Part shown: positions 16,269 to 51,333 of the stretch, one piece after another
Layout: the number at the start of each line of letters is the position of its first letter
How positions within the stretch are numbered: the first letter of the stretch is position 1
Assembly (NCBI GenBank): GCA_045863395.1
Contig: BTVJ01000038.1
Location: 1 to 64,000, forward strand
DNA: 64,000 bases
Direction of reading: 5' to 3'
DNA from: Myxococcales bacterium
Lineage (GTDB): Bacteria; Myxococcota_A; UBA9042; JABWCM01; BTVJ01
Program-made: the position numbers and the translations under genes
Notes under the pieces: model-generated
Told to the model about the DNA's origin: nothing
What the model saw: only the letters and a program-made list of their open reading frames with translations
Databases searched by the model: none

Positions 16269-17554
16269 TCAGCTCGCCGGCTGCTCCCAGGGGAGCTCCG
16301 GCTTGCCAGAGTGGCCGTAGTTCGTCGTTGATCGGTAGATTGGGCTCAGCGGGTCGAGCCGCTCGATGACCGCCCCCGGCCGGAAGTCGAAGGCCCGGAC
16401 GAAGGCCTCGGCGGCAGCGGCCTCGCCGGTCCCGAAGGTGTCCACGCGCACCGAGACCGGCTGGGCCACCCCGATGGAGTAGGCGACCTGGATCTCGGCG
16501 TGCCAGGCCAGTCCCGCAAGGACGAGCTGCCGGGCGACGTGACGGCAGAAGTACGCCCCGCTCTGGTCGACCTTCGACGGGTCCTTCCCGCTGATGGCCC
16601 CGCCGCCGATGCGAGCCGCGCCCCCGTAGGTGTCGACGCCGATCTTGCTTCCGGTAACCAGCGTCGGCAGACGGCCCGCCCTGGACGAAGCTCCCTGTCG
16701 GGTTCACCAGGACCTGCGTGTCCTCCCGCCACCACCCACCGAGGGCCTGCGGCGCGAGGCGCCCGGTCACGAACGCGCGGATGTCTTCTTGCGACGCAGT
16801 CTTCGCGTGCTGCGTGGACACCAGGATGTCCGTGACGCCGACGGGGCGGCCCCCCTCGTAGGCGACGGTGACCTGGGTCTTGGCGTCGGGCCGCAGCCAG
16901 GACTCTCCACCCCGGCGAAGCTCTGCGAGGGTCCGGGCGAGCCTGTGTGCGAGCAGGATTGGCAGGGGCATGAGCTCCGGCGTCTCGTCGGTGGCGTAGC
17001 CGAACATGATCCCCTGGTTCCCGGCGCCTTGTGTGAACAGGGATCCGCGCCGGACGCCCGCGTCGATCTCGGCGGCCTGCTGGCTGAGCAGCGTCTGGAT
17101 GGCGACCCCATCCGCCGAGAACGGATCCGTCGGGTCCGTGTAGCCGATCTCTACGAGGGTGCGGCGCGCGACGCGCTCCACGTCTACTATGGCGCCGGTG
17201 CACAACAACCTGTGCCATTCGGCCCCCGCTGCATCCCCGCTGGCAGCCTGGCGAGACCTTGGAAGGACAAGGCCCTGCCTGCGGCCTCGCCAGACTGCCA
17301 GCGGGGCGCATCGGGCCCCTCGATGGATCAGGTTGTCATGCACCGGCGCCCATGGCGGTCGACGTGATCTCTCCCGCGATGATCAGATGATGGCCCTTGC
17401 AGAGCACCTCGGCGGCGACCAGGGCCAGCGGGTCCTGGTCGATGTGAGCGTCGGGGATGGCGTCCGCGATAGTGTCGCAGACCTTCTCGGGGTGCTCCTC
17501 TGAGACGGACTCCGACGTGAAGGGGTACCTGTCCCGGTCACTCTGGACAAGCAT
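16269..17554 (-). pseudogene. metK: Methionine adenosyltransferase pseudogene (insertion, frameshift, degenerate motifs)
   Basis: [69 protein letters not shown] in separate ORF segments; insertion at 17191-17350; frameshift near 16655-16660. Confidence 0.92.
17191..17350. mobile_element. 160-bp palindromic MITE/REPIN-like insertion
   Basis: Terminal inverted repeats 20/22 identical, arms pair over ~65 bp; atggcg at both junctions; removal restores the metK frame at this site. Confidence 0.75.
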
Positions 17555-17893
17555 GATCGACCCTCCGGCAGCGGCTGCTCGGCGCCCGCGCGACACCATG
17601 CCGAGCGAGCGTGCAGCGACGAATGTCGGTCACGCCCGCTCGACAACGAGTCGAGCAAGCCCGCGGTCACTTCGCCTGGAGGGGATGCCCTGGAGGCGTG
17701 GAAGGCGCTCTCGCGCCCACCGTGGCCGCAACTTAGACGGTGTACTTCCCCTTCTCGCGTGGCCCGTCAAGTTACAGCAGAAATCGCCACGCGACCGCCC
17801 TACTGTAGGTCGTGCGGGCGACTACGTCAAGCGGAATTTTGCAGCCTTGGTGTCGGCGGGCTGAGGTGCCTCGTCCCGCTCACTCTCGATGGG

Positions 17894-17982: not shown

Positions 17983-19083
17983 GTGATGAAGAACCTGACA
18001 CCCGTCCCGGAGACTCCTGATGCCCGCGCCGCCGCGTGGGGACTCCACCGCATCCCGGACGCACCGGCTCCTCACCCGGTTGGCTTGGACCAGCGCGTCC
18101 GCGGCCTTCTCCTCGGGCTTGCCATGGGAGACGCGCTCGGCAACACCACGGAGAGCAAAGTCCCGCCGAAGCGTCCGGGGGCGCCGATCCGCGACTACCA
18201 GCCGAATCGCAACGCGGAGTGGCGCGCCGTCGGGGTCCCTTCCGACGACACGCAGCTCGCCTTCTGGACTCTCGCCGCGCTCCTCGAGTGCGACCGGCTC
18301 GACCCCGCGCGGGTCCTGGAGGAGTTCGGCCGGACGCCCGTATTCGGCGGCGGGGGCACCTGCGAAAAGGCCATCGCGCGCTCCCGTGGCGGGCGGGACT
18401 GGCGCACGGCCGGCCTCGCCGGCTGGGGGAACGGGGCGCTCATGCGGATCGCCCCCGTTCTGCTCCCCCACCTGCGCCGCCTCCCCGGGGGTTCTCGGGC
18501 GCTGTGGGACGACGTCGCGGTCGGGACGACGCTCACCCACGCGTGTCCCTCGTCGCTGGCCGCCTGCGTTGGCTATGTGGGGTTGCTGGCAGAGCTGCTG
18601 GCGCTCCCTGCGGGGAGCGCGCTCCCTTCGCCCCGGTGGATCCCCGAGACCTTCCTCCGGTACGCGGGGGACCTGGACGGTGGGGAGCTGCTCTCTCCAA
18701 AGGCGCCGCAGCTCCGGGAGACGCGGGTGTCGCTCACCGCCCTCGTGCGCCAGGAGGTGCTGCGCGCCGTGGAAGAGGGGTGGTCGCTCCGTCGTGGCCT
18801 CGACCGCTGGTACTCCTCGTCGCGCATCTGGGAGACGGTCCCGGCCGTGCTGTTCCTGCTCGCACACCACGCGGGCGACGCGGAGGAGGCCATCGTCCGC
18901 GCCGTCAACGACACGAAGGACAACGACAGCATCGCGGCCATCGTCGGGGCTGCCGTGGGGGCGCTCCACGGCGCGAGCGCCCTGCCGCAGCGGTGGCACG
19001 ACGGCCTGCTCGGCCGCACGCGTGCGTCAGACGACGGGCAGGTGCAGGCGCTCGCGGACGAGGCGGTGGGGCGGTGGGCCTGA
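17983..19083 (+). CDS. ADP-ribosylglycohydrolase (DraG/ARH family)
   Basis: GLAMGDALG, SDDTQ, GNGALMRIAP, DNDSIAAIVGAAVGA. Confidence 0.92.
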   Translation: MMKNLTPVPETPDARAAAWGLHRIPDAPAPHPVGLDQRVRGLLLGLAMGDALGNTTESKVPPKRPGAPIRDYQPNRNAEWRAVGVPSDDTQLAFWTLAALLECDRLDPARVLEEFGRTPVFGGGGTCEKAIARSRGGRDWRTAGLAGWGNGALMRIAPVLLPHLRRLPGGSRALWDDVAVGTTLTHACPSSLAACVGYVGLLAELLALPAGSALPSPRWIPETFLRYAGDLDGGELLSPKAPQLRETRVSLTALVRQEVLRAVEEGWSLRRGLDRWYSSSRIWETVPAVLFLLAHHAGDAEEAIVRAVNDTKDNDSIAAIVGAAVGALHGASALPQRWHDGLLGRTRASDDGQVQALADEAVGRWA

Positions 19084-22703: not shown

Positions 22704-23750
22704 ATGAATACGAGGCGAGTCTGGCTACTGTGCGTGATCTTCGTGGCAGCTGGGTGTGCTGGTGCTGGTGGAAACACAGGCGACAGCGGTCCGGTCGCGG
22801 GCATCGACACGGTGAACGCCGACGGCGCTGCGGGCGATGCGGTCGGTCCGACACCCGACGTCTTGGGCGACTCGACCACCCCACCGGACTCGGTCGCAGA
22901 CGCCACCCCAGACACGGTCGCCGACACCACCCCGGACGCCGCCGACTCCACAGGCGACGACACAACGGACGGGGGCGGCGACGCTTCCCCAGACACTGGC
23001 AAGCCGGTCTATGTCGCCTGCTCGTCGTGCGGGAGCGAGGACGAGTGCCGCGGCAAGCCGTGTGAGACTGACGGGGAGGAGTGCTCCGTCGCGCCCTACT
23101 GCGATCCGTGGTTCGGAGAGTGCGTCTGCAAGGACGGCGAGTGGGCCTGCACGTCCACGGACTGCCCCCTCGATTGTCCGGGCCCGACGCCCGCGTGCTG
23201 CACGAACGGACAGACCGTCGCAGCGGAGTGCACGCCCGTGGACTGGGACTGCGGGCAAGGCACTCTCGGCGCCTGTCCTGGCACATGCGGCGGGCAGCCC
23301 CCGATGGAGTGGTGCCTCTCCACGTGCATTGGCCGCGCGATCATCCCCCCCGAGTGTACCGATGAGCTCGGTTGGCACTGCCCGGGTGAGAGTCTCGCCC
23401 CCGGTGAGTGCTGCGACGCCCCCTTGGTCTACACTGTCGGGGGGTGCTTGACCTGCGGCGACGCCATCGCCGGTATGCAGGCGTCCATCGCCGCTGCCGT
23501 GGCTGCCCACGCGGACTGCACGGTCGACGCGGACTGCACGGCAGTCTTTGCGGACACCGCCTGCCAGGGCGCCTGCCAGGTGCCGGTCAGCAAGGCGGGC
23601 GAGGCGGACCTCCTCGCCGCCATCAAGAACGCCTCCACCGCATACTGTCAGGACTACGTGCAGCAGTGCGGCTACGCGACGCCGGACTGCGCGCCGGTCA
23701 CTCCGTACTGCAAGGAGGGCGCCTGTGCCCTAGAGTGGAATCTCCCGTAG
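22704..23750 (+). CDS. Cys-rich lipoprotein with Asp/Thr/Pro linker
   Basis: Lipobox AAGC, DT-rich spacer, many Cys, C-terminal CTVDADC motif. Confidence 0.75.
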   Translation: MNTRRVWLLCVIFVAAGCAGAGGNTGDSGPVAGIDTVNADGAAGDAVGPTPDVLGDSTTPPDSVADATPDTVADTTPDAADSTGDDTTDGGGDASPDTGKPVYVACSSCGSEDECRGKPCETDGEECSVAPYCDPWFGECVCKDGEWACTSTDCPLDCPGPTPACCTNGQTVAAECTPVDWDCGQGTLGACPGTCGGQPPMEWCLSTCIGRAIIPPECTDELGWHCPGESLAPGECCDAPLVYTVGGCLTCGDAIAGMQASIAAAVAAHADCTVDADCTAVFADTACQGACQVPVSKAGEADLLAAIKNASTAYCQDYVQQCGYATPDCAPVTPYCKEGACALEWNLP

Positions 23751-24131
23751 CTTCGGTGGTGTGCGTTTGCCGACCAGCCCCGACCCATCGCGCCCCAAGA
23801 GCGGGGTCACGACGCCTCGCGCTACGTCGTACTCCCGGCCGGGTGGGAGACTTGCCGCTGGGGGCACGCCCTCATCGCCCGTCGAAGGAGGCGCTGCGGC
23901 CGCGGCGTCGGACTCGGTGCTTGCCAGCGCTGCGCCTGGTGCGACACCATGGGCAGACAGTCGCCCAGAGTCCGGTGGGCGCGGGGTGTCGCCCGGCTGG
24001 TGAGGTCGGCGCACCAAGGCGTGCCCGCCTTCAGGAGCACGTCTTTGCTCGTCCACTCCGGGCGCTCAAGGCGGGGTGTCCGAGACTCGCGAGTGCGTCA
24101 GGGTCATCGTTGCTCGCGGCCGGCTACGTCA

Positions 24132-24160
24132 TTGACGCCCGCGCATTGCCAGGTTATACC
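24132..24160 (+). promoter_or_regulatory. Putative sigma70 promoter of the TA operon
   Basis: TTGACG-N17-TATACC, overlapped by an imperfect operator-like inverted repeat gttatac...gtaagaac. Confidence 0.55.
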
Positions 24161-24184
24161 TCACGTAAGAACGCGGAGGTCGAT

Positions 24185-24415
24185 GTGAGCGTCGCACGAA
24201 AGAAGCTCCAGCGGATCGGCAACAGCACCGGGGTCGTGCTCCCGGCCGAGCTGCTTCGGGACGCTGGGCTCCGGCCAGGCGACGAGGTCGTCATGCAGGC
24301 TGAGCGGGGGCGGGTCGTCATCACGGCGCTCGACCCGGACTTCGACGACCTGGTCGCTGCCGCGGATCGCTTTGTCGCCAGCCACCCGAACGCGCTCAGG
24401 AAGCTCGCGGAGTGA
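24185..24415 (+). CDS. AbrB/MazE/SpoVT-family antitoxin
   Basis: KLQRIGNSTGVVLPAELL...L-x-x-GD; RBS GGAGG; GTGA overlap with the toxin. Confidence 0.9.
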   Translation: MSVARKKLQRIGNSTGVVLPAELLRDAGLRPGDEVVMQAERGRVVITALDPDFDDLVAAADRFVASHPNALRKLAE

Positions 24416-24801
24416 GGTTCCTCTCGAAGCGCTTCGTGGTCGCATACCATGCTCGCCTCATCGATCTCTTTGGCGGCGCGCACGGGCTCAGAGACGAGGG
24501 GCTGCTCGACTCCGCCGTCGCGCAGCCCGAGCCGACCTTCGATGGGGAGCCGCTTCACAGCGACGTCTGGGAGATCGCCGCGGCCTACGGGTGGCACATC
24601 TGCCGGAACCACCCGTTCATCGACGGCAACAAGCGGGTCGCGGCGGTCGCGATGGGCACGCTCCTCGCCATCAACGGAGAAGAGAGCGTCTTCGACGAGG
24701 TCGCGCTGTATCTGACGGTCGTCGCGATCACCGAAGGGCGCATGGACAAGGCGGAGCTGGCGGCGGGGCTTCGGACGCACGGCGGCGGGGCCTCTTCGTG
24801 A
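24412..24801 (+). CDS. doc: Death-on-curing (Doc/Fic) toxin
   Basis: GLRDEGLLDSA and NHPFIDGNKR Fic/Doc motif. Confidence 0.92.
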   Translation: MRFLSKRFVVAYHARLIDLFGGAHGLRDEGLLDSAVAQPEPTFDGEPLHSDVWEIAAAYGWHICRNHPFIDGNKRVAAVAMGTLLAINGEESVFDEVALYLTVVAITEGRMDKAELAAGLRTHGGGASS

Positions 24802-24904
24802 GGGCCAAGCGCTCGGGCGAGTGGAACTCTGTGCCTCGCAGAGGGGACCACGGGGCGGACGCCGGGATTGACCGGAGGGACGCGACGACGGTGGAGGGTG
24901 AGGC

Positions 24905-27730
24905 TCAACGCTCGGGGCGGGCCGGACGCGCCACACGGAACCCAAAGCTCCTGTACCGCTCCAGCACTTTGAGGTTGTGTCGCGCCGCGGCCACCAGGTA
25001 GCGCGCCGGGTCGTACCAGGAGCCCCCGCGCAGCGGACGCGCCTCATCATCGCCCGTCGCGCACTCGGGATCCCGTTCTCCGTCCTGGCGCCCCCGGTAG
25101 GCGTCTTCCTTCCAGGTGTCGCGGCACCACTCCCACACGTTGCCGGCCTGATCGAGGGTGCCGAAGGGCCCCTTGCCCCGCGGGTAGGCGCCCACCGGGC
25201 TGGTGCTTCCGACCTGTATGCCAAAGTTGGCGTGCTCCGCCGTCGGTGCGTCCTTGCCCCACGGGTAGGGCAGCCCCTCGGGCCCTCGCGCGGCGGCCTC
25301 CCACCAGGCCTCGGTCGGAAGGACCAGACCTGCCCACGCGCAGTAGAGCGAGGCGTCGTCCCAGCTCACATTCACGACCGGCTGGTCCTGGCCGCCGAAG
25401 CGCTTGTCCTCGAGGAGCCCGGACCCCTGGGCCCCAGGGTTGTCCGCCAGGAACCGCGCATACTGCGCGTTGGTGACGGGGTACTTCCCGATCCAGAAGG
25501 CGGGCAGGGTGACCCGGTGGGCAGGCCGCGACCGCTCCAAGAGGTCGTCGCCGATGGGGTAGACCCCCGCCGGCACGTACACCAGCACGCTCCCGTCCCG
25601 CTCGTTCACCGACTCGGACCCCGGCGCCGGCTCGCCGCCCTCGACGCGCCCCGTCGTGCCACCCGGCAGCCCCAGCAGCTCCGCCAGCAGCCCCCGCGCC
25701 GCGCTGTCGGTCTCCGCGGCAGCCAGCTCCTCCAGCGTCGTGCGGTCCCCCGCCGCCGGCTCCTCCCCCGCCAGCAGCACCTTCACGGCCCGCAGCGCCT
25801 CATACCGAGCCCCCGCGTCCGCGACGCCCTCCCGCAGCGCGGTCAGGAACGGGCGAGGGGACCGCCGGCCCGCGTCGCGGAGGACGTCGTCGAGCCAGCC
25901 GGGGTGGCGGGTGAAGCGGGGGGAGCGGACCAGCGCCGCCATGAGGGGCTCGAACACGGGCGGGCCCTCCAAGGCGCCGGCGAGCAGGAGCACCTCCTTC
26001 CACCAGTCGTCGCCGAAGTGCCCGGCCAGCTCATCGAGCACCTGCGGGCGGACACCGAAGGTGCATTGGACGTGGGTGGCGCACAGGTACTCCTGGAACG
26101 TGAGGTGCAGGAACCCGTAGAGCCCCCGGCCCACGTCCACGACCAGCCCCGAGTCGTCGCGGACGGCCGCCAGCAGCTCGTCCACGTCGATGCCCAGGCG
26201 TCCCGCCTCCACCGCTGCGTTCCCGAGGACCACCCGCACCTGGTCGAGGGGCGCCTCCGCCCGCTTCTCTACCTGGTGGAGCCACCAGGCCATGGGCCGC
26301 AGCAGCGACAGAGCTTGGGAGGCGGGGATGCGGAGCGGCAGCTCCTTGGCCTCCCGCCAGCACTGGAGGAGCACCTCGACGCACCGGGCGTAGAGCTCCA
26401 CGCGCGCGTCGGGCAGAGTGCCGCCCTGCAGGTGGACGAGGCAGAGGATGTGCAGCAGGAGCGGGTTCTCGGACAGCCGGCGCAGGGAGCGGGCCCGGTC
26501 CTCGCCAGAGAACACGCGGCCCAGGAGCTGCCCCGCCATGCGGTCCGCCTCGGCGCGGACGGTCGCGTCGGGGTGCTCTGGGTGGATCGCGCGCTGGACG
26601 GCATGCTGCCAGCGCGCCACGTAGCGGCGTGCCTCGCCCTCTTCCAGGGCGCGGATGTGCAGCTCCAGGAAGCGGCCGTCCAGCCGCGCGTCGCCCTTGT
26701 AGGCCGGGTAGCGCGAGGTGAGCACCACGCACACGTCAGGCCGGTCCGTGACCAGCGAGTCGATCCACCTCAACACCCTCACCTGCGCGCCGGAGCTCGG
26801 CACCTCGTCCAGGCCGTCCACCAGCAGCAGCAGGTTCCTCCGGCCCAGGAGCTCCCGTGCGAAGCCGGACCCGGTGCCCAGCTCCGGCTGCTCCACGGCG
26901 CCCTCGACAGCCGGCAGCAGCCCCCCGGGCGCCCGCGGGATGCGCCGCAGGGTGACGAGCACCGGCACCGTGTCCGCCGGCAGGCCCAGCGTCGCCGGCC
27001 CCCGCCGCGGGTCCGTCAGCACGAGGACGAAGTGCTTGAGCAGCGTGGTCTTGCCGCTCCCGGGCTCGCCGAGCATGACGAGGCCCTTCATCCCCTGCGT
27101 GCGCACTTGGCGAAACGCCTGGTCGAGGGGCACGTCCACCGAGTCACCGCAGGCCGCGTCCACGCCCCGCGCCGCCCCGGGCTCCAGGTGGCCCCACACG
27201 GGGCGGTGCGCCAGGGCCCGCAGCGGCACGAACACGTCGTCGAGAGACAGGGGGATGCGGATGTTCCCGGGGATCCCCTGCACGGGGATGGTGCTGGCCC
27301 GCGCCCGCAGACAGCCCAGATACGACGCGAGCGCGCCGCCGGCCTCAGGGGCGGGCGCTCCCTCTCGAAGCGCCCGCGTCAGCTCCCGCGCCCCCGCCTC
27401 CAGGCTGGCCGAGCAGTCCGCGTGCCGCTCGTGCCTCAAGAGCGCAGGCACCCTGGCCCGGGCGTCCAGCTTCGCGACCAGCACGCGGTTGCGGCCCTCG
27501 ATCTTGTGGTGGATGAGCGCCTCCAGCACCCCCTCGAAGCCCTCGTCCCCCGCGGCGGCGCGGCTCATGCACACCACGAAGCAGGCGTTGCCCTCCATGG
27601 CGCTCTGCAGCATCCCCACGTGGAGCTCCCCGTCCCCCGGGTGCAGCTCCGCCCCGACCTCCGACAGGTGGCGCGCCAGCTCAGCGGCCCGCCCGCGGTC
27701 ATCGGGCACGTGCAAGACCACCACCCTCAC
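24905..27730 (-). CDS. NLR-like protein: degenerate TIR - NACHT - FGE-sulfatase (SUMF1/CLec-fold)
   Basis: Walker A GEPGSGKTT, Walker B LLLVDGLDE, VLTSR, NPLLL, FLHLTFQEY; C-terminal PVTNAQY, PVVNVSWDDA, LPTEAWWE, YPWG, GNVWEWC, RGGSW, GFRVA. Confidence 0.9.
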   Translation of the reverse strand: MRVVVLHVPDDRGRAAELARHLSEVGAELHPGDGELHVGMLQSAMEGNACFVVCMSRAAAGDEGFEGVLEALIHHKIEGRNRVLVAKLDARARVPALLRHERHADCSASLEAGARELTRALREGAPAPEAGGALASYLGCLRARASTIPVQGIPGNIRIPLSLDDVFVPLRALAHRPVWGHLEPGAARGVDAACGDSVDVPLDQAFRQVRTQGMKGLVMLGEPGSGKTTLLKHFVLVLTDPRRGPATLGLPADTVPVLVTLRRIPRAPGGLLPAVEGAVEQPELGTGSGFARELLGRRNLLLLVDGLDEVPSSGAQVRVLRWIDSLVTDRPDVCVVLTSRYPAYKGDARLDGRFLELHIRALEEGEARRYVARWQHAVQRAIHPEHPDATVRAEADRMAGQLLGRVFSGEDRARSLRRLSENPLLLHILCLVHLQGGTLPDARVELYARCVEVLLQCWREAKELPLRIPASQALSLLRPMAWWLHQVEKRAEAPLDQVRVVLGNAAVEAGRLGIDVDELLAAVRDDSGLVVDVGRGLYGFLHLTFQEYLCATHVQCTFGVRPQVLDELAGHFGDDWWKEVLLLAGALEGPPVFEPLMAALVRSPRFTRHPGWLDDVLRDAGRRSPRPFLTALREGVADAGARYEALRAVKVLLAGEEPAAGDRTTLEELAAAETDSAARGLLAELLGLPGGTTGRVEGGEPAPGSESVNERDGSVLVYVPAGVYPIGDDLLERSRPAHRVTLPAFWIGKYPVTNAQYARFLADNPGAQGSGLLEDKRFGGQDQPVVNVSWDDASLYCAWAGLVLPTEAWWEAAARGPEGLPYPWGKDAPTAEHANFGIQVGSTSPVGAYPRGKGPFGTLDQAGNVWEWCRDTWKEDAYRGRQDGERDPECATGDDEARPLRGGSWYDPARYLVAAARHNLKVLERYRSFGFRVARPARPER

Positions 27731-28107
27731 CGGAGCGCCTCCAGCACCGCTGCCATCGCCCCGTCGAAGTCAGCGACCGCATCGGCCAGCAGCAGGTCGG
27801 CGAGGATCGGGGGCAGGTCCCCGCCAGTCAGGCGGATGGGCAGGATGCGCCGCTCGCCCCGCTGGAGCATGGAGTGCAGATAGGCCTGCCACTCCCTGCG
27901 CATGAACGGGCCGTCCCCCTTGTCGGAGAGACACAGCACCAGCGCGTCGCTCGCCATGGCGTCGTTCATGAACCCGATGATCGAGTCCCCGACGCGCACG
28001 TCCCAGTCATCGAAGCGGACGATGTGCCCCGCGTCCTGGAGAACCTCGGCGACCCGCGTCGCGGCGGCCGTGTCGGCGGTGCGGTGGCTCAGGAACACGG
28101 TCTTCAT
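27727..28107 (-). CDS. Stand-alone TIR-domain protein (TIR_2)
   Basis: VFLSH, F-D-x-W-D-x-x-x-GDSI, LVLCLS, REW (putative catalytic Glu), ILPIRL...LPPIL. Confidence 0.88.
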   Translation of the reverse strand: MKTVFLSHRTADTAAATRVAEVLQDAGHIVRFDDWDVRVGDSIIGFMNDAMASDALVLCLSDKGDGPFMRREWQAYLHSMLQRGERRILPIRLTGGDLPPILADLLLADAVADFDGAMAAVLEALR

Positions 28108-28299
28108 GGCGGCTCCGTCTGAAGTCGGTGGGGAGCCCCATCTTCGATCCCAAGCCTCCGCGGGTCAATGTCCGCGCGACCCAGCGTCCAGGCTCTCGCA
28201 CTGACGAGTTGCATTCGCCGGCGGGCGCTTCACCGGCGGCGGCCCTCTTGCCCATGCCGGCAGGGGTCGCATGTGGAAGCAGAGGCTGGCATGGTTCAT

Positions 28300-28334
28300 T
28301 CGCGAATCGCGAATCGCGAATCGCGAATCGCGAA
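28300..28334. repeat. Heptamer tandem repeat (TCGCGAA)5
   Basis: Five perfect units read directly in the divergent intergenic region. Confidence 0.95.
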
Positions 28335-28360
28335 CGCGGAGCCAAGGACCCGGACGAGCT

Positions 28361-28918
28361 GTGAGCCGTCAGACACCCGCCCTCAAGCCCCAGGACGTCG
28401 TCGTCGCGCTCGCGCTGTCGCTGAGTCCGTCCTGGACCTTCGCCAGCGTCGCGGCCTCGCTGGGCATGTCCGCGTCGGAGGTGCACGGCGCCGTCAAGCG
28501 CCTGCGGACTGCGCGTCTCTACAGCGAGGATCGCCGAGGCCCTGCGGTCGACAACGTTCTCGAATTCCTCGTGCATGGCATCAAGTATGTCTTCCCCGCC
28601 GAGCCCGGCCCGGTGCGCAGAGGCGTGGCCACCTCTGTCTCGGCCCGCCCCTTGCGGGAGCACTTTTCGGGAGCCGCCGGCCCGCTGAGCGAGTTCGTCT
28701 GGCCGACCGCCGACGGGACCGACGCCGGGCAATCGGTGGAGCCGCTCTTCCCGACGGTTCCAGACGCGGCGCTCCGCAACCCGGCGCTTCACGAGCTGCT
28801 CTCCCTCGTCGACGCGCTCCGGATCGGACGTGTCCGTGAGCGCGCCGCGGCAGAGGAGGAGCTGCGCCGGCGCCTCACCGTGTCTTCACAGGACCGGTCT
28901 GCTCCAAGAGCGCCATGA
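28361..28918 (+). CDS. Putative type IV TA antitoxin-like HTH protein
   Basis: LKPQDVVV...LGMSASEVHGAVKRL HTH, LEFLVHGIKYVFP, VWP, LVDALRIGRVRER; ATGA-coupled to an NTase gene. Confidence 0.65.
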   Translation: MSRQTPALKPQDVVVALALSLSPSWTFASVAASLGMSASEVHGAVKRLRTARLYSEDRRGPAVDNVLEFLVHGIKYVFPAEPGPVRRGVATSVSARPLREHFSGAAGPLSEFVWPTADGTDAGQSVEPLFPTVPDAALRNPALHELLSLVDALRIGRVRERAAAEEELRRRLTVSSQDRSAPRAP

Positions 28919-29613
28919 GCGAGAGCAATCTGCAGATTCTGGCTCGCGTCGCGGCTGCGCTCAGACGGGCCAACGTTCGCGCAGTCTTTGTCGGGGGGGC
29001 GACGATCAGTCTCTACCTCGACCCGGTCGCGGCGTCGCGTGTGCGCTCTACGCTGGACGTGGACTGTGTCGTCCCGGCGGCGACTCGATCCGAGTACCGC
29101 AGAATCGAGGCGGTGCTCCAAGCGCACGGCTTCTCGCCGTCCTCCGAGGAGGGCGCCCCGCTGTGCTGCTGGACTCTCGACGGTGAGGTCACGGTGGATG
29201 TCCTCCCGACGTCGAGCGAGGTGCTGGGGTTCGGCAACCGATTCCACGCAGCGGCGCTCGCCACCGCCGAGGAGCATATCGTCGAGGGACAGGTCATCGC
29301 GGTCGCTCCCGTGGCGCTGGCGCTGGCCATGAAGGTCGAGGCGTACCGCGCGCGAGGCGCCCCAGACCCCATCGCGAGCCGCGACCTCGAAGATGCGGTC
29401 GCCCTCCTGGATGGCAACGCCCGCAGCGTCTAAGCCATCGGCACCGCGCCGGTCGACGCTCGCGACGCCGTGCGGGGATGGGCGGCCGCCTTGCTCCAGC
29501 ACCCGCGAGTCAGCGACCTGGTTCTCGGCCACCTGGGACCGACGGGCGACGCCGGCCTGAGGGTCGTCCTCGCGCGACTTCATGCGCTGGCTGCTCTTCC
29601 CGAGACTCTTTGA
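28915..29613 (+). pseudogene. AbiEii-like nucleotidyltransferase with in-frame premature TAA at 29431-29433
   Basis: VFVGGA, R-x-T-x-DVD, K...R...SRDLED NTase motifs; frame stays open for 59 more plausible codons to TGA 29611-29613. Confidence 0.65.
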
Positions 29614-40111: not shown

Positions 40112-42883
40112 ATGACCCGGACTGCCTGGACTTGGCCCGGCGCGCGCTGGTGGCGCTGCGACCTGCACGTCCACACGCCGGCCTCCTACGACTTCAGCAA
40201 GCGCGAGACCGCGACATACGAGCGCTGGGTCGAGGGCGTCCGGGCTGCAGGCATCTCCGTGGTGGCGATCACGGATCACAACACCGGCGACGGCATCGAC
40301 AAGGTGCGAGCTGCGGCAGGATCGGGCTTGACCGTGTTCCCGGGGGTCGAGCTGACGGTCTCGCCGGGGGTCCACATGCTCGCGCTTTTCGATCCCTTAC
40401 GAGGTCGCGACGAGGTCGTGTCCCTCCTGGCGAGCTGCGGCATCCCGACGCCCGAGTTCGGCATGCGCGAGGCCATCTCACCGAGGTCGGTGCTCGACGC
40501 GATGGCCGAGATACACCGTCTGCACGGGCTGGTCATCCTCGCCCACGCTGACGCCGAAAAGGGCGTGCTGCACGAGATCCGCAACGGCCAGGACCTGATG
40601 CGCATCCTGCGGAGCCCGCACCTGGCCGCCGTGGAGGTCAAGAGCAGGGAGTCCGCGTCGTTGCGGTACGTCGACGGATCGATGCTCGACTACGTCCCCG
40701 AGTCGGGCCCCCTCTGCCTCGTTCAGTCGTCGGACGCCCACACGCCGGAGCACATCGGCCAATCGTCGACCTGGATCAAGATGACGAGCCCCACTCTCGA
40801 GGGGCTGCGCCTGGCGCTTCGCGACAGGTCGCTGAGCACGCGGGATCCTCTCGAGACCCCGAACCCCAACGAGCACGCCCCCCTCGTCATCGAGAGCATC
40901 ACCGTCGCTGGCGCTCGCTATATGGGGAGGAGAGCTCCGTTCGAGGTCCGCTTCAACCCGTGGTTCAACGCGATCATCGGTGGTCGGGGGACCGGCAAGT
41001 CCTCCGTGGTGGAGCTGCTTCGAGCGGCGCTGCGACGCCAGGACGAGCTCCCCGAGACCCTCCGCGGAGGCTGGGACGACATGATGCGCGCCTACGACCG
41101 GCGCGGCACCGGGGGGATCCTCACGCCGGACACCCAGGTGACGGTCCTCTATCGAAAGGACGACGCGCAGTTCCGGGTGCGGTGGGACTTGAAGGGCGAT
41201 GACCCACCCATCGAAGAGATGGGGTCGGGTGGTTGGGTGGCGAGACCGGGCGACGTGAGGTCTCGCTTTCCCGTGCGAATCTACAGCCAGAAGCAGGTGT
41301 TCGAGCTCACCCGGGATCCCGAGGCGCTCCTCCGCATCATCGACGAGGCGCCCGAAGTGGGACATGCGAACCTCGTCGATCAATGGAAGGCCGAAGAGAC
41401 GCGCTTCCTGACGCTGCGTGCACGGGCCCGCGAGATCGAGTCATCGCTGTCCGACGAGCCGCGGCTGCAAGGGGAGCTGGACGACGTGAGGCGCCGCCTC
41501 GCGGTGTTCGAGAGCGCCGGACACGCCGACCTTCTGCGGCGCTGGCAGCTCAGGCGGCGGCAGGGGTCCGTCGTGGACCGGTGGCAGATGGCCCTCGGAA
41601 CGGCAACTGATCGCTTGAGCGAGCTGGCTGACGCCGCAACAGTGGGGGCGCTGGACGACTCGTCGTTCGATCCCAGTGATCCCGTCGATGCAGCGCTCCT
41701 TCGCGCCGCCTCGGAGGTCAAGGAGCGGATGAGCGAGCTGCAACAGGAGGCCAGGGTCCTCGCGGAGAGGGCCGAGGTCCTACGCGCGTCCTGGCCTGAG
41801 ACGCGATCAGCCTCTCCGTGGACCACTGCTGCGCGAGAGGCCGAGGCAGCCTACGACAAGCTCATCGAGGATCTGGAAGCGGCGGGAGGCGGCGATCCCA
41901 GCGAATACGGGAGGCTCGTGCAGCGCCGACAGCTCCTTGAGGAGAAGCTGTCTACCTTCGCGGGCAAGCGGGCGACCATGGCCGACCTCCAGGCCCAGTC
42001 TCGCGCGTGCCTCGACTCGCTGCGGCGGCTCCGGGCGGAGGTCAGTGATCGCCGGTCCAAGTTTGTCGCGGACGTGTTGAAGGCCAACCCGCTCGTCCGA
42101 ATCGACATCATGCCCATGGGGGCGCTGGATGGAGCGAAGGCTGAGCTGCGGCGCCTCCTGGGCCGCGAGGACGAGGCATTCCAGAAGGACCTCGGTGACC
42201 CCGGGGAGCCCGGCACACTGATAGGTGACCTGTGCGGACCGTATCTCACGGACTTCGAGCGTGCGACCCCCGCGCGACGGCGGGAACTCACTGACGATCT
42301 GTGTGGTCGGCTCGACGCGCTGAAAGCAAGGCTCCACGGCATCCGGTCAGGGACGGCGAAGGCCGCGGACAGCCGGTTCGCGAAGCACCTCGAGGGCCGC
42401 CCCCCCGAGCAGATGGATCGCCTCGACACCTGGTTCCCGAAGGACACGCTGGTCGTCTCGTTCAGGGCCGGCAATGCCTCGGGCTTCCGTCCCATCGAGC
42501 AGGGCTCGCCGGGCCAGCGCTCGGCGGCGCTGCTCGCGTTTCTGCTGTCCCACGGGGTCGAGCCCATCATCCTCGACCAGCCGGAGGACGACCTGGACAA
42601 CCACCTGGTGTACGACCTGATCGTGCAGCAGTTGAGGCAGCTCAAGACACGGCGGCAACTGATCGTCGTCACGCACAACGCGAACATCGTGGTCAACGGC
42701 GATGCGGAGCTGGTCGTGGCGCTGGACGTGCAGTCTGGACAGACGGCGTGTGTGGCGATGGGCGGTCTGCAGGAGCAGGCGGTGCGGGACGAGGTCTGCC
42801 GGGTGATGGAGGGCGGCGCCGAGGCATTTCGCGAGCGCTACCGTCGCATCGCGCAAGGGGGCGGCGATGTTCGACTCCCGTGA
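40112..42883 (+). CDS. PHP-domain + ABC/SMC-like ATPase (TrlF/Ppl-like, putative anti-phage)
   Basis: DLHVHT, ITDHN, GVE, AH, SDAH (PHP); GGRGTGKS, coiled coil, SPGQR, IILDQPEDDLD, VTHN. Confidence 0.88.
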   Translation: MTRTAWTWPGARWWRCDLHVHTPASYDFSKRETATYERWVEGVRAAGISVVAITDHNTGDGIDKVRAAAGSGLTVFPGVELTVSPGVHMLALFDPLRGRDEVVSLLASCGIPTPEFGMREAISPRSVLDAMAEIHRLHGLVILAHADAEKGVLHEIRNGQDLMRILRSPHLAAVEVKSRESASLRYVDGSMLDYVPESGPLCLVQSSDAHTPEHIGQSSTWIKMTSPTLEGLRLALRDRSLSTRDPLETPNPNEHAPLVIESITVAGARYMGRRAPFEVRFNPWFNAIIGGRGTGKSSVVELLRAALRRQDELPETLRGGWDDMMRAYDRRGTGGILTPDTQVTVLYRKDDAQFRVRWDLKGDDPPIEEMGSGGWVARPGDVRSRFPVRIYSQKQVFELTRDPEALLRIIDEAPEVGHANLVDQWKAEETRFLTLRARAREIESSLSDEPRLQGELDDVRRRLAVFESAGHADLLRRWQLRRRQGSVVDRWQMALGTATDRLSELADAATVGALDDSSFDPSDPVDAALLRAASEVKERMSELQQEARVLAERAEVLRASWPETRSASPWTTAAREAEAAYDKLIEDLEAAGGGDPSEYGRLVQRRQLLEEKLSTFAGKRATMADLQAQSRACLDSLRRLRAEVSDRRSKFVADVLKANPLVRIDIMPMGALDGAKAELRRLLGREDEAFQKDLGDPGEPGTLIGDLCGPYLTDFERATPARRRELTDDLCGRLDALKARLHGIRSGTAKAADSRFAKHLEGRPPEQMDRLDTWFPKDTLVVSFRAGNASGFRPIEQGSPGQRSAALLAFLLSHGVEPIILDQPEDDLDNHLVYDLIVQQLRQLKTRRQLIVVTHNANIVVNGDAELVVALDVQSGQTACVAMGGLQEQAVRDEVCRVMEGGAEAFRERYRRIAQGGGDVRLP

Positions 42884-44102
42884 GGAGCTGCTGGACAAGA
42901 TCCGCCTTGGCGAGGACAACGCCCTCGAGCTGAAGGCGCTCTCGACGAGCGGCGCGAAGGTCGTCGGACCTCGGCGCGACGACCTGGCCGACGAGCTCGC
43001 CGCCATGGCCAACACGGCGGACTGCGTGTGCCTCCTCGGCGTGGACGACAAGACCCGCGACATCCTGGGGATCCCTGTCGAGGCGCTGGACATCGTCGAG
43101 GCCTTCGTCCGCGAGCTGTGCAACGACAGCGTGAAGCCGCCGCTCCGCGTCCACATCCTGCGGATGGAGCTCCCCGACATCCTTGGCACGCCGCGAGCCA
43201 TCCTGAAGATCGAGGTCCCGCGGAGCCTGTTCGTCCATGAGAGCCCGGGCGGCTACCTGCACCGTATCGGGAGCAGCAAGCGCCGGATGCCTCCCGAGGT
43301 GCTGGCGCGGCTGTTCCAGCAGCGAAGCCAGGCACGCCTCATCCGGTTCGACGAGCAGGCCGTCCCCGACTCCCGGCTTGCGGATCTGGACCCGGCGCTC
43401 TGGGAGCGACTGTGCGATCCGACCGTCGAGGACCCGGTACGGACCCTGCACGAGCGGAAGGTCCTGACGATCTTCGAGGGGCAAGAGCGCATCACGGTCG
43501 CGGGCGCCCTGCTGTGCTCCACGCGCCCCGATGCCTGGCTCCCCGGGGCGTCGGCACGCGCGGTCCGCTTCCGAGGCGTCCACCAGGACTCCAACAACCA
43601 GGTCGACGCGGCCGACGTGACGGGATCCCTGGATCAGCAGATCCTCGCGCTCTACGCCTTCGCGCGGCGCAACAGCAGGGTGTTCGTGCGGGAGGGCCCG
43701 CCGCGGGAGGAGGTGCCCCAGTTCTCGCCGCGGGCCCTCTTCGAGGCGATCGTCAACGCCGTGGTCCACCGGGACTACTCGGTCTACGGTTCACGGATCC
43801 GCTTGTTCCTGTTCGATGACCGCCTGGAACTCTACTCTCCGGGTGCCCTGCCGAACACGCTCTCCGTTGACAGCATCGCGCTGCGCCAGTCGACGCGAAA
43901 CGAGGCCGTCAAGTCGATCATGGTCAAGCTCCCGGTCGGCGTGGAGGGGCAGGGGAGCGGCCGCGGGTACTTCATGGAGGCCCAGGGCGACGGCGTACCA
44001 ATCATCCTGCGAGAGACCCGCAGCCTCGCAGGCGCGGACCCGGTCTGGCGGGTGCTCGACGAGAGCGAGGTCCTGCTCACCATCCCGGCGACGATGGAGT
44101 GA
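42867..44102 (+). CDS. Schlafen/AlbA_2 domain + HATPase_c_4 (RecG-C-like) protein
   Basis: GEDNALELK, AAMANT...LGVDD, YLHRIGS; EAIVNAVVHRDY, RLELYSPG, RN. Confidence 0.88.
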   Translation: MFDSREELLDKIRLGEDNALELKALSTSGAKVVGPRRDDLADELAAMANTADCVCLLGVDDKTRDILGIPVEALDIVEAFVRELCNDSVKPPLRVHILRMELPDILGTPRAILKIEVPRSLFVHESPGGYLHRIGSSKRRMPPEVLARLFQQRSQARLIRFDEQAVPDSRLADLDPALWERLCDPTVEDPVRTLHERKVLTIFEGQERITVAGALLCSTRPDAWLPGASARAVRFRGVHQDSNNQVDAADVTGSLDQQILALYAFARRNSRVFVREGPPREEVPQFSPRALFEAIVNAVVHRDYSVYGSRIRLFLFDDRLELYSPGALPNTLSVDSIALRQSTRNEAVKSIMVKLPVGVEGQGSGRGYFMEAQGDGVPIILRETRSLAGADPVWRVLDESEVLLTIPATME

Positions 44103-44944: not shown

Positions 44945-46738
44945 TCACCCCGCCAGCATCTTCTGAAGCGCCACGCCGATGCCCGTCAGGCTCTCGCCCG
45001 CGATGAGCCCCGCCGCCAACACCACCACGAAGCGCTGCGCCCACGAGGCATGGACGCGGAAGGCGATCAGCGCGAGCAGGCCGCCGAGGAAGATGGAGAT
45101 GGAGTTGTGAGCGGGAACGACGATGGCCAGCCCCAGGGCGGCCGGGCTCGGGACCCACGCCCTCACCTTCGGGGGGACGACCTTCTCCAGCACGGCGAGG
45201 CCGATGCCGAGGCCCGCGCCCCACACCATGGCCATGCCCACGCCGGGCGGCAGGTGCGAGAAGCCCTTGGTGAGCACCTCGGCGACGGCCTTCCACTGGA
45301 GCACGGCCGGGGCCGCCCACTCGGGGGTCAGCAGCATCCCCTGCGGGTCGGGGATCAAGAGCAGGTACGCGGCCGAGCCCGCCAGCGCCCCCGCGAGGCA
45401 CCCCGCCACCTGGGCGATGGCCTGGTAGCGGGGAGAGGCCCCGATCATCAGGCCGGTCTTCATGTCGTGGAGCAGGTCGGCGCACTGGCTGGCCGCTCCC
45501 CCGGTGACGTTGGCGGTCATCAGGTTGTCGGTCACGTTGCCCGGGGAGATGGCGCCGAAGGTGAGCTGGGTCACCTTGCCCATGGCGCCGACGGGGGTCA
45601 CGCCGGTCTCTCCGGATACGCGCGCGGCCACGAGCGCGAGCACGAAGGTCAGGATCACCCCGAGGGTCGCGACGAGGGGCGAGATGCTGAAGAACGCCAT
45701 CTGGCAGACCACGGAGAACACGAGCGCCACGATGATGCCGGCGCCCAGCCACTGGCGAGGGACGTCATGGTCCTCGGCGGAGGAGCCGCCCCCTCGCCCC
45801 CCGGTCAGCGCGCGCACCACCGAGCGCCACGAGAACAGGAACGAGGTCAGCGACGACGTGACCAGCAGGACCACGCCCGGCCACACGAGCCACCCGACGA
45901 TGGAGCCGAACCACTCGGCTTCGGGCTTGCCGGGCTGCGCCCAGCCGCGGGCGAGCAGGTCGGGGGCGAGCACGCCCCACGTCACCAGCGCGCCCAGGAG
46001 CAGCGACCAGCATGCGCGCATGCCGATGAGCGCGCCCAGGCCGACCATCAGCACGCTCGGGTCCAGGGCCAGGCCGAGGTTCATCGGGGTGACCGTGACG
46101 GACCCGGCCTTGAAGCTCACGGGAACAGAGAGCTTGGGCAGGCTCCACACCGTCACCGAGATCTTGAGCGCGACCCCCACCGCCGCGCCGGAGAGCAGCG
46201 TGTAGACCCGCGCCATGGCCTCCTTGCCCTTGGCGTACATCTCCTTGAGGGTCTCGCCGGTGGCGATGCCGCCCGGGAAGGGCAGCTCGTCGACCAGCAG
46301 CATCTGGCGCCGCAGCGCGACGGCGACCGCGATGCCCACCAGGGACACGGAGAAGGTCCAGATCACGAGGGCCGTCCAGCTCAGGGTCTCTCCGGTGAGG
46401 ATGGTCCAGGCTGGGATGGGCGCGACGAGGCCCGCCGACGAGATGGACGCGGCCGCCGACGCGGCCGTCTGGTTGACGTTGTTCTCCAGGATGTTCCACG
46501 AGCGGAGGCCCGCCCCGAAGTGCAGCGCCTGCCAGAAGCCGTAGCTCAGCAGGGCCGCAGTGATCGACATGTTGAAGCCCCAGCCGATCTTGAGACCCGC
46601 GTAGATGTTGCAGAGCGAAAGCGTCGCCCCGAGCACCATCCCCGTCATGATCGCACGCACCGTGAGCTGCGGGACCGACGGGTCTGGGATGGGCCAGGGC
46701 TCGTGGGGCGGTGGTCCGGCGGCTGAGGTCGTCGTCAC
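44945..46738 (-). CDS. OPT-family oligopeptide transporter
   Basis: [41 protein letters not shown]; start at GTG after GAGGAG. Confidence 0.9.
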
Positions 46739-46929
46739 GTGCGCTCCTCGTGTGGTTGGTCCCCGTGTGGGGAGCGGCGATTGTACGGCATGAGCCGTGT
46801 CGGGCAAGCGAAACCGGACGCCGCCCCAGGGCAGAGCGGATGATCGCCCGACTCGTGGGCCCTTTGCGCCACCGCCCCCTCGCGGCTATCATCCGTGCAC
46901 CAAAGAACGCGCTCCCTTCGGAGGACCCC

Positions 46930-51333
<4,404 letters not shown>

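Follow-up and report, generated by a model that had tools for sequence, protein, structure and literature searches.

Two overlapping TIR genes at one locus

What does a bare TIR gene do when the gene that it overlaps opens with a second TIR domain that lacks the catalytic glutamate and is fused to a NACHT receptor? This arrangement was found in the window, by which we mean the whole stretch of 64,000 nucleotides that was analysed. The small open reading frame (126 aa, 27727-28107) and the large one (941 aa, 24905-27730) both lie on the minus strand and overlap by GTGA, in full agreement with the preliminary description. The features of the locus are the following:

27727..28107, minus strand: free TIR, 126 aa, predicted NADase (Pfam TIR_2, E 8.7e-20)
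27727..27742, minus strand: translational-coupling junction (GGAGG at 27742-27738; GTGA stop/start overlap at 27730-27727)
27359..27730, minus strand: pseudo-TIR at residues 1-124 of the 941-aa protein (Pfam, alignments, AF2, Foldseek, VIA)
26051..27343, minus strand: NACHT (STAND) NTPase, residues ~130-560 (Pfam NACHT, E 3.4e-12)
24926..25585, minus strand: FGE-sulfatase / CLec-fold domain, residues 716-935, predicted sensor (Pfam, E 1.6e-46)
24212..24801, plus strand: AbrB/MazE-type antitoxin and Fic/Doc pair, outside the dyad (Pfam MazE_antitoxin, E 3.3e-9; Fic, E 8.4e-17)
28271..29433, plus strand: HTH and nucleotidyltransferase gene pair, transcribed divergently from the dyad, PADLOC candidate PDC-M21A/B, outside the dyad (PADLOC, E 8.8e-40 and 6.2e-37)

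The GGAGG sits 7 nt 5' of the GTG start of the large gene, and an overlap or near-zero gap between the two genes was also seen repeatedly in related loci. A frameshift or assembly error as the cause of the overlap was ruled out, as an independent contig from another study covers positions 23000-29059 and spans the junction without an indel. Contigs from RNA libraries overlie parts of both genes, which is not proof of transcription; neither a sigma-70 promoter or terminator consensus nor flanking repeats pointing to a mobile element were found at the locus.

A predicted catalytic TIR beside a TIR fold that lacks the glutamate

The TIR match of the small protein covers residues 4-115 of 126. The catalytic residue is Glu72 in helix alpha-C (codon 27892-27894), present in 39/39 aligned rows of the free-TIR family, and profile alignment to AbTir places the BB loop at G40-D41-S42, with both Gly and Ser present. 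With Glu72, the GDS loop and the TIR_2 match in place, the small protein is the stand-alone TIR with a catalytic Glu that had been described, and it is predicted to be of the NADase type. Position 68 of the small protein holds Phe in place of the family's cyclisation Trp. Among solved structures, the family profile came closest to 7UXR ('TIR domain protein', which we take to be BtTir) and AbTir (7UWG/8G83), with E from 4e-17 to 4e-15. In the tree, the window sequence falls inside the family clade of 10 free TIRs, itself included, with support of 100/98.

The start of the large protein gave a marginal TIR_2 match when residues 1-128 were searched alone (E 2.8e-6, 28.3 bits against a cut-off of 28), and a two-sequence pseudo-TIR profile found no meaningful match by sequence in the PDB. 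The AF2 model of the N-terminal 125 aa had TIR topology (pLDDT 87.6, pTM 0.84), and its top structural matches were TIRs (Foldseek, SPARTA TIR, E 1.4e-4; VIA, Cat1, Z 15.0, rmsd 1.9 over 117 aligned residues). A single-sequence AF2 model of the whole 941-aa protein (pLDDT 40.5) was too poor for use. In both a profile-profile alignment and a 73-row multiple alignment, the column that holds Glu72 in the small protein is occupied by Val68 in the large one, and the Trp column by Gly64; the BB loop is shorter by ~6-7 residues and has lost its Ser, and the beta-A Ser is gone too. The preliminary description had read a TIR layout with V at the Glu position, and the model and alignments confirm that the fold is a TIR and that its catalytic Glu is missing.

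The remainder of the large protein matched expectation, with an intact NACHT and a C-terminal FGE domain as had been claimed. The NACHT scored 47 bits against a Pfam cut-off of 26.7, and its motifs are intact: Walker A at 221-228 (Lys227), Walker B at 301-309 (D305-E309) and a WHD from 540 with His542. The protein is thus tripartite (TIR fold 1-124, NACHT, FGE 716-935) and has the bacterial NACHT (NLR-related) layout. The nearest NACHT family members are 44-48% identical, and most carry an N-terminal calcineurin-like phosphoesterase. In comparison with the relative P0004, the FGE domain is most divergent in the C-terminal binding-site segment (21/38 identical in residues 898-935, 134/182 in 716-897); contigs from 4 runs cover parts of this segment and show no variation there. 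Short-word BLASTN of the 97% complete assembly gave no DGR template for the window FGE, and the genome's DGR, on contig C33, targets a different FGE gene.

Free TIR and pseudo-TIR are conserved as a pair

Among metagenome loci of the free-TIR family, found by a search that was seeded with one N-terminal pattern and sampled one clade, the next gene begins with a Glu-less pseudo-TIR in 32 of 40 scorable cases. In the other eight, no main-family pseudo-TIR comes next: three loci have a TIR that looks active, three a different Glu-less domain and two neither. After de-duplication the pair was found in 29 of 34 loci, with order and tight spacing kept. The reciprocal test gave a similar picture, as the single genome match of the pseudo-TIR profile beyond the window lies downstream of a free TIR gene and overlaps it by ATGA; as a control, a free TIR was upstream of 0/3 NACHT-FGE relatives with a different N-terminus. 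We infer the adjacency of P0004 and P0005 from contigs of equal size (4581) and the same source, and not from DNA reads. In the NACHT-FGE proteins most closely related to the large protein, an enzyme is found in cis where the pseudo-TIR sits. Locus L036 has both domains in one frame; this fusion may result from an error of one base in an A-run close to a contig end.

The Glu column of the partners holds I, V, L or F in 22/22 members of the main family, V in the window protein and L in P0004, whose pseudo-TIR is identical at 77/122 positions. We give very little credence to residual catalysis by the N-terminal TIR, in which Glu66 would serve as a displaced acidic residue: this residue is common to the window protein and P0004, but its column, two residues before the catalytic Glu, is variable, with Arg the commonest in main-family partners (40%), and the Trp equivalent and the Ser of both beta-A and the BB loop have disappeared as well.

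The proteins that carry the pseudo-TIR differ in what follows it. We found it on NACHT-HEAT, NB-ARC, nSTAND5-TPR and pentapeptide proteins, whereas FGE was absent from all 25 downstream partner proteins scanned, and the FGE version of the dyad is rare, limited to the window genome and one relative. With the STAND cores variable and the FGE version rare, what is conserved is thus the TIR/pseudo-TIR dyad and not the FGE sensor. Of the module proposed earlier, a TIR with a pseudo-TIR-NACHT-FGE protein, the pairing of the two TIR genes stood but the FGE part did not prove conserved. Gene context shows the dyad as a portable cassette grafted onto various STAND-sensor proteins.

Matches across genome sets were few, with 10-16 candidates per genome scored. 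In the window's own phylum the TIR profile matched 4/401 genomes at E <= 1e-12, and the six non-self matches sit in open frames of 306-1473 aa. The pseudo-TIR profile matched 1/301, 0/301, 0/301 and 0/251 genomes in four sets, only the window's own genome in a set of 391 and 0/5 in a further set, and the two-sequence version retrieved 6 proteins among 1.84 billion. The system is thus sporadic. The pair was not found in plasmids, in viral contigs (19 pattern matches, 0 confirmed) or by whole-protein patterns in GTDB (15 loci, mostly FGE-only matches).

Selection and the relationship of the window lineage to the family

For the pseudo-TIRs, dN/dS was ~0.04-0.14 in 4/7 pairs, those with estimable dS, and by these estimates the family pseudo-TIR is maintained under purifying selection. 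Distances among free TIRs and among pseudo-TIRs correlate across 21 loci (Mantel, rho 0.515, 3/5000 permutations), a value that is inflated by shared descent. These figures bear on whether the two genes are mere neighbours, with a pseudo-TIR that was once an effector and has decayed, and an upstream TIR that acts independently of it. The close NACHT-FGE relative P0023, which has an active-looking TIR in cis, and the long branch of the window pseudo-TIR would both fit such decay. We nevertheless consider it very unlikely, given the low dN/dS of the family, the order and spacing kept across distinct loci, and the identity between the window protein and P0004, at 63% for the pseudo-TIR and 69% for the NACHT.

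The window pseudo-TIR scored 28 bits on the main-family HMM, less than the 45 bits of an unrelated active TIR. One tree joined it to the main-family pseudo-TIRs at 88/69 with a long-branch warning, and a quick mixture tree left it unjoined. With this low score and the conflicting trees, the family evidence carries over to the window only in part. A beta-C Cys occurs in every free TIR, in every main partner and in the window lineage, and is absent from outgroup TIRs. The surfaces on which the two domains might dock are not consistent across the main family and the window lineage: the former keeps the BB-loop G-x-S, whereas the window lineage has a shortened BB loop and the opposite side is better conserved (30/41 vs 11/22). 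Complex prediction for the window TIR and pseudo-TIR, with 34- and 22-row alignments, gave 0.01 twice against a mark of 0.32, with the controls unfolded, and weighs neither for nor against an interaction.

Genomic surroundings

The TA pairs flanking the dyad had been taken as a sign of a defence island. Both TA-like pairs are present, but the 'island' is only ~5 kb long amid ordinary metabolic genes, and known defence genes are little enriched in related loci; across the window and these loci, the support for a defence-island setting is weak. No third gene recurred beside the dyad in 17 loci scanned, and at cut-off the module matched none of the system models of PADLOC or NCBIfam.

A proposed mechanism

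The reading that we favour, and hold to be probable, is that the pseudo-TIRs displayed by an activated STAND oligomer seed assembly of the free TIR, which thereby becomes an active NADase, making the locus an executor-split, NLR-like conflict module. The role would be in conflict, probably anti-phage, with the large protein as the receptor: its CLec/FGE domain would bind the trigger, and the NACHT would then switch and oligomerise, a step established for the family and presumed for the window protein. The clustered N-terminal pseudo-TIRs would serve as a non-catalytic TIR scaffold, and the free TIR, which is co-translated and itself lacks a domain for oligomerisation, would be recruited into a head-to-tail TIR assembly. 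The two-subunit active site would arise in this assembly, NAD+ would be destroyed and the cell killed or arrested. In favour of this reading, the active site of AbTir, a close solved relative, spans two TIRs in an assembly of the MAL/MyD88 type (10.1101/2022.05.07.491051), and the MyD88 TIR is nucleated by the MAL TIR (PMC8110528).

A broader version may be put forward more tentatively, as something short of an even chance. In it, the dyad would be a dedicated, portable bacterial adaptor-executor TIR pair: the free catalytic TIR would polymerise on a non-catalytic scaffold TIR, the N-terminal module of NACHT, NB-ARC and further STAND receptors, and NAD+ destruction would be amplified in a prion-like manner. 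Such a pair, born by duplication of one TIR gene, would be the prokaryotic counterpart of MAL-to-MyD88 templating and a living intermediate between enzyme and scaffold TIRs.

Co-conservation and translational coupling fit equally well a guard or antitoxin arrangement, in which the free TIR would be constitutively dangerous and kept silent by the bound pseudo-TIR until NACHT activation frees it, much as the RRS1 TIR restrains RPS4. The loss of the partner often goes with a damaged TIR, as in the remnant P0006 and the early stop of L072-L074, and L067 and L068, whose partner is lost, carry Phe at the near-invariant BB-loop Ser. Such decay equally fits plain loss of function, however, and the free TIR of L056 is apparently intact though its partner ends after 16 residues, as are those of L035 and L042, which have no adjoining partner (the flank of L042 is only 92 nt). 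Moreover, TIR NADases require self-association, for which the bare 126-aa TIR has no domain, and we regard the guard arrangement as unlikely.

Signaling could also flow in reverse, as in Thoeris, with the free TIR sensing infection and making cyclic ADP-ribose and the pseudo-TIR acting as the nucleotide receptor that activates the STAND protein. AbTir, a producer of 2'cADPR, is among the nearest solved relatives, the cyclisation Trp is frequent (92% among the free TIRs, 95% among the main-family pseudo-TIRs), and the ThsB and ThcB4 models gave matches, though weak ones only. Yet this would leave the STAND proteins, whose C-termini are variable sensor-type domains, without an executor; no recurring effector gene lies nearby, and the window has Phe (free TIR) and Gly (pseudo-TIR) in the Trp column. 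We consider such a flow decidedly improbable.

Bacterial TIRs are known as enzymes and those of animal TLR adaptors as non-catalytic scaffolds; if true, scaffolding by the pseudo-TIR, with a dead NLR TIR switching on a free NADase TIR, would unite the two modes. The dyad would also account for stand-alone TIR genes of 127-129 aa and for NLR N-termini annotated just as TIR, and it offers natural pairs by the dozen for swaps between cognate and non-cognate partners.

Comparison with known systems

In the literature searched, we found no description of a bare, ParA-less TIR/pseudo-TIR dyad. The preliminary description did not recognise the split-executor architecture as a named system, but versions with bDLD3 adaptors or an extra ParA have been predicted in print. 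The source data of Figure 2 in PMC8195603 contain rows 'TIR-> ParA+TIR+NACHT+FGS', one row in the supplement reads TIR-> EAD8+TIR+NACHT+FGS, and bDLD3+STAND+FGS is predicted to pair with bDLD3+TIR (Kaur et al. 2021, PMC8195603). The STAND-FGS systems with bDLD3 share with the window a NACHT-FGS receptor (the large protein likewise fuses a STAND NTPase to a C-terminal FGS), a putative TIR executor on the adjoining gene and predicted homotypic adaptor coupling. Unlike in the EAD and bDLD3 systems, the window adaptor would be a dead TIR and the executor a bare TIR, and Pfam searches with E up to 1 found no EAD or death-like adaptor on either protein.

TIR-ParA systems (TIR-FC / TIR-FT; FxsC/FxsT) similarly have an active-TIR gene upstream; the protein encoded next joins an inactive TIR to a STAND module, and its possible domains include NACHT and FGS. 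Their authors suggest that inactive TIRs aid multimerisation (10.64898/2026.10.19.760177). The dyad would make this conjecture directly testable with two small domains. In contrast to these ParA systems, the window pseudo-TIR starts at residue 1, no ParA domain was found in the window protein (Pfam) or in 25 partners at E <= 1e-4, and the free-TIR family is not FxsC-like (1/34 members matched, E 0.0055). The ParA-less variant described in the preprint, which is computational only, has an active TIR fused directly to the STAND module and not split as here.

Bacterial NACHT proteins related to NLRs (Kibby et al., 10.1101/2022.07.19.500537) and CLec-NACHT proteins (PMC10907252) have the same 'antigen-receptor type' architecture of N-domain, NACHT and FGS. 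The window differs from them, and from DGR-diversified CLec-NACHT proteins, in that the effector is not in cis and the genome's DGR has another FGE gene as its target. Thoeris (10.64898/2025.12.03.692087) likewise has a stand-alone TIR gene in a small operon, but the partner here is a STAND receptor; the neighbours of the window TIR are the STAND gene and the TA-like pairs, with no ThsA-type or other Thoeris signal-binding effector beside it. MAL shows that one TIR can template another, as proposed here for the pseudo-TIR, and AbTir is among the nearest solved relatives of the free TIR. AbTir has its own coiled coil, however, and the MAL/MyD88 work concerns scaffold assembly, whereas in the window a non-catalytic TIR of an NLR-like protein would template a catalytic one.

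A small TIR gene overlaps a candidate receptor gene whose TIR lacks the catalytic glutamate

The reading frames drawn in the preliminary description stand, both on the minus strand:

27727-28107, minus strand: free TIR gene, 126 aa; Pfam TIR_2, E 8.7e-20
24905-27730, minus strand: large-protein gene, 941 aa; TIR_2, NACHT, and FGE-sulfatase by Pfam

The two overlap at GTGA, with GGAGG 7 nt 5' of the GTG. As a contig from an independent study covers 23000-29059 (11 substitutions) and crosses the junction without an indel, assembly error is ruled out as the cause of the two-gene split. The host genome is 8.77 Mb with high GC, and the sequencing runs best holding it are labeled bioreactor, aquatic, and sludge metagenomes. 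Pfam matches to NACHT (E 3.4e-12; Walker A, Walker B, and WHD His542 all intact) and FGE-sulfatase (E 1.6e-46) agree with the domains first described.

Residues 1-128 of the large protein, scanned alone, match TIR_2 (Pfam E 2.8e-6), and an AF2 model of this pseudo-TIR from a 22-row alignment has five strands and five helices in TIR topology (pLDDT 87.6, pTM 0.84); since the input rows were TIR-like, the fold is only partly independent of the sequence match. The top Foldseek rows were SPARTA, MAL, and MyD88 TIRs, and the best VIA match was Cat1 (Z 15.0, rmsd 1.9, 117 aligned), receiver domains scoring no higher than Z 11; the TIR layout recognized earlier by eye is thus confirmed. Profile-profile and 73-row alignments agree in placing Val68 at the free TIR's catalytic Glu72, as the preliminary description had it, and Gly64 at the aromatic position four residues ahead. 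The pseudo-TIR BB loop has lost its Ser and ~6-7 residues of length. Of the mutants of AbTir, which is closely related to the free TIR and has a solved structure, E208A is inactive, and the activity of S176A is absent or very low (10.1101/2022.05.07.491051). Glu66 falls in a variable alignment column, and displaced catalysis in the pseudo-TIR is highly improbable.

The pair recurs in metagenomes

A search of 5.8 billion clusters with the pseudo-TIR region returned a single further protein, P0004 (952 aa, 68% identical to the large protein overall, Leu in the Glu column). The free TIR had three relatives: P0005 (127 aa, 76% identity), a Nocardia aobensis TIR (131 aa, 42%), and P0006, a decayed remnant whose TIR (81% identical) is followed by out-of-frame pieces resembling the NACHT and FGE regions. 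Because P0004 and P0005 have a common ENA source and longest contig (4581 bp), their genes are probably neighbors. In an Atlas search, the free TIR fell beside two clusters of 128-aa TIRs, with 94 and 74 members, which occur most often in Actinomycetota. The top nonself match of the window pseudo-TIR profile was P0127, a 346-aa protein with a Glu-less TIR (His in the Glu column) and an unannotated C-terminal part.

A metagenome scan seeded with three free TIRs, using patterns that excluded the Glu column, gave 303 matches and from these 48 loci, of which eight were left out (L079, spurious; L060, L075, L077, and L078, without downstream DNA; L072-L074, decayed). A conserved pseudo-TIR opens the next gene in 32 of the 40 scorable loci, nearly always within ~50 nt and often overlapping, and in 29/34 once near-identical TIRs are collapsed. 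This count takes in broken partners (L033, L041, L056, L067, L068, and L076), a TIR interrupted by a stop codon (L070), a 380-nt gap (L059), and an in-frame fusion (L036). Elsewhere the next gene starts with another Glu-less domain (L055, L057, and L065; 3/40) or is an active-looking TIR (L039, L048, and L049; 3/40), or the partner is missing (L035 and L042, the latter with a flank of only 92 nt; 2/40). The co-conservation that the preliminary description had proposed as a check is therefore borne out, and that the two genes are chance neighbors is very unlikely. Every free TIR that was aligned keeps the Glu (39/39, from 36 of the 48 loci plus three proteins). In the main-family partners, the residue in that column is I, V, L, or F in 22/22, these being drawn from the 32, with the others too short or broken to align.

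Among 25 downstream proteins scanned, the main NTPase was NACHT in eight, NB-ARC in two, and nSTAND5 with TPR in one; HEAT repeats occurred in six and pentapeptide repeats in one, and neither FGE nor ParA was found in these 25, many of which were ended by contig edges. In reverse, the pseudo-TIR profile matched 1/301 genomes of a cyanobacterial-centered sample, where a free TIR lies upstream with an ATGA overlap; three other phylum samples gave no match and that of the host phylum only the window protein. Pseudo-TIR dN/dS was ~0.04-0.14 in 4/7 pairs, those with estimable dS. Distances of the two TIRs correlate over 21 loci (rho 0.515, 3/5000 permutations), which is not independent of descent.

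Three loci types deserve separate mention. In L036 (2471-2994), both TIRs share a single frame whose junction is one A longer than typical overlaps; the cause is natural fusion or else a sequencing error, the end of the contig being close by. In L032 (3560-7361), the dyad has a truncated NTPase and is followed by a nucleoside phosphorylase (Pfam) and genes resembling, by eye, the MoxR and vWA parts of a ternary conflict system. L055 (1051-2136), L057, and L065 form a third partner type, with Gln in the Glu column of a divergent N-terminal domain and then a helical region without a Pfam match.

Origin and surroundings

The window free TIR nests inside the family (support 100/98). The window pseudo-TIR scores 28 bits on the main-family HMM versus 45 bits for an unrelated active TIR; one tree grouped it with the main family (support 88/69, flagged for a long branch), and a quick mixture-model tree placed it outside. 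A beta-C Cys occurs in every free TIR, in every main partner, and in the window lineage (the window protein and P0004). Because outgroup TIRs lack it, sequence evidence favors a single duplication from which the dyad arose; alternatively, the window pseudo-TIR may have lost its Glu independently.

Among the best 120 of 351 NACHT-region matches, the nearest relatives (44-48%) mostly carry a calcineurin-like phosphoesterase at the N terminus, and others start with DUF4062, a kinase, or an active-looking TIR (P0023). The pseudo-TIR thus fills the effector slot where this family normally bears an enzyme. As a control, a free TIR lay upstream in 0/3 NACHT-FGE relatives with different N termini. The FGE binding-site segment is the part most divergent from P0004 (21/38 identical versus 134/182). 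A host diversity-generating retroelement (DGR) targets a different FGE gene, and no DGR template for the window FGE gene was found in the genome. The element (G000:C33:45128-52672) comprises two frames, one of 1228 aa ending in FGE and one of 413 aa for a reverse transcriptase, and two copies of a 133-nt repeat (48672-48804 and 52540-52672, 89% identical). A same-order genome (L027, 4728-10993) has, next to ATP synthase genes, two STAND-like genes in tail-to-tail orientation, each with FGE at its end; one opens with a short helical domain that by eye resembles an EAD.

The flanking pairs behind the suggested defense island are present (MazE-type/Fic and PDC-M21A/B), but they form only a 5-kb patch amid ordinary genes (44 ORFs scanned). 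Around related loci, TA, integrase, transposase, NACHT, or PNPase genes are scattered, and most neighbors are not defense genes. Other features of the window are:

16272-17599, minus strand: S-adenosylmethionine synthetase N- and C-terminal matches split over two short ORFs, possibly a frameshifted metK
17983-19083, plus strand: ADP-ribosylglycohydrolase, ~6 kb from the dyad, with no sign of connection
28300-28334: 7-nt tandem repeat (~4 copies) separating the divergent TIR and PDC-M21A genes, one unit fewer in another study's contig; could be a slippage-variable promoter-region element
40112-44099, plus strand: 923-aa AAA_21/SMC-like ATPase overlapping a 411-aa Schlafen AlbA_2 and HATPase_c_4 protein, by appearance a candidate defense pair
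46711-51330, plus strand: 1540-aa protein with MopE-like metal-binding and thrombospondin type 3 repeats

Possible mode of action

In AbTir, two TIRs together form the active site within a head-to-tail assembly of the MAL/MyD88 type (10.1101/2022.05.07.491051), and MAL TIR nucleates MyD88 TIR unidirectionally (PMC8110528). The bare 126-aa free TIR would have nothing of its own for clustering, and a STAND oligomer would bring its pseudo-TIRs together, which would then recruit and nucleate it. Because of these analogies, we consider recruitment and nucleation by the receptor the more probable reading, with trigger binding, oligomerization, TIR-TIR binding, NAD+ loss, and defense all inferred. 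Main-family pseudo-TIRs retain the BB-loop G-x-S, the face used by MAL; in the window lineage the opposite side is better conserved (30/41 versus 11/22), so the docking faces suggested by conservation differ. No recurring third gene was found among 89 neighboring ORFs of 17 loci. A guard or antitoxin role of the pseudo-TIR is unlikely, and a Thoeris-like reverse flow distinctly so.

Comparison with known systems

NACHT-FGS receptors, as well as a pair of bDLD3+STAND+FGS with bDLD3+TIR, are described by Kaur et al. 2021 (PMC8195603), whose listed loci include TIR-> ParA+TIR+NACHT+FGS and TIR-> EAD8+TIR+NACHT+FGS. A bare TIR-> TIR+NACHT+FGS row is absent from the 62 of 66 "TIR+NACHT" places covered in one of its supplements. 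The dyad is not described in the available text of Kibby et al., PMC10907252, PMC13581612, PMC11350192, PMC7159879, or 10.64898/2025.12.03.692087. Neither was it found in full-text searches of openly accessible literature, and no PADLOC or NCBIfam model fits it. The dyad fails membership of Thoeris and of the EAD/bDLD3 STAND-FGS systems on their defining features. Its free TIR is related to AbTir, an enzyme whose active site needs TIR-TIR assembly, and MAL is a precedent for one TIR templating another. In TIR-ParA systems, too, an active TIR is encoded upstream of a ParA-STAND protein that bears an inactive one, and the authors suggest that the inactive TIRs help multimerization (10.64898/2026.10.19.760177), but the dyad lacks the defining ParA. 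The claim of an unnamed architecture thus holds for the bare dyad where searched, but split-effector STAND versions had been predicted (PMC8195603; 10.64898/2026.10.19.760177). The dyad is a real, conserved minimal cassette, apparently undescribed so far, best filed as a variant among those predicted systems, and we infer that it acts in the manner of an adaptor-coupled NLR.
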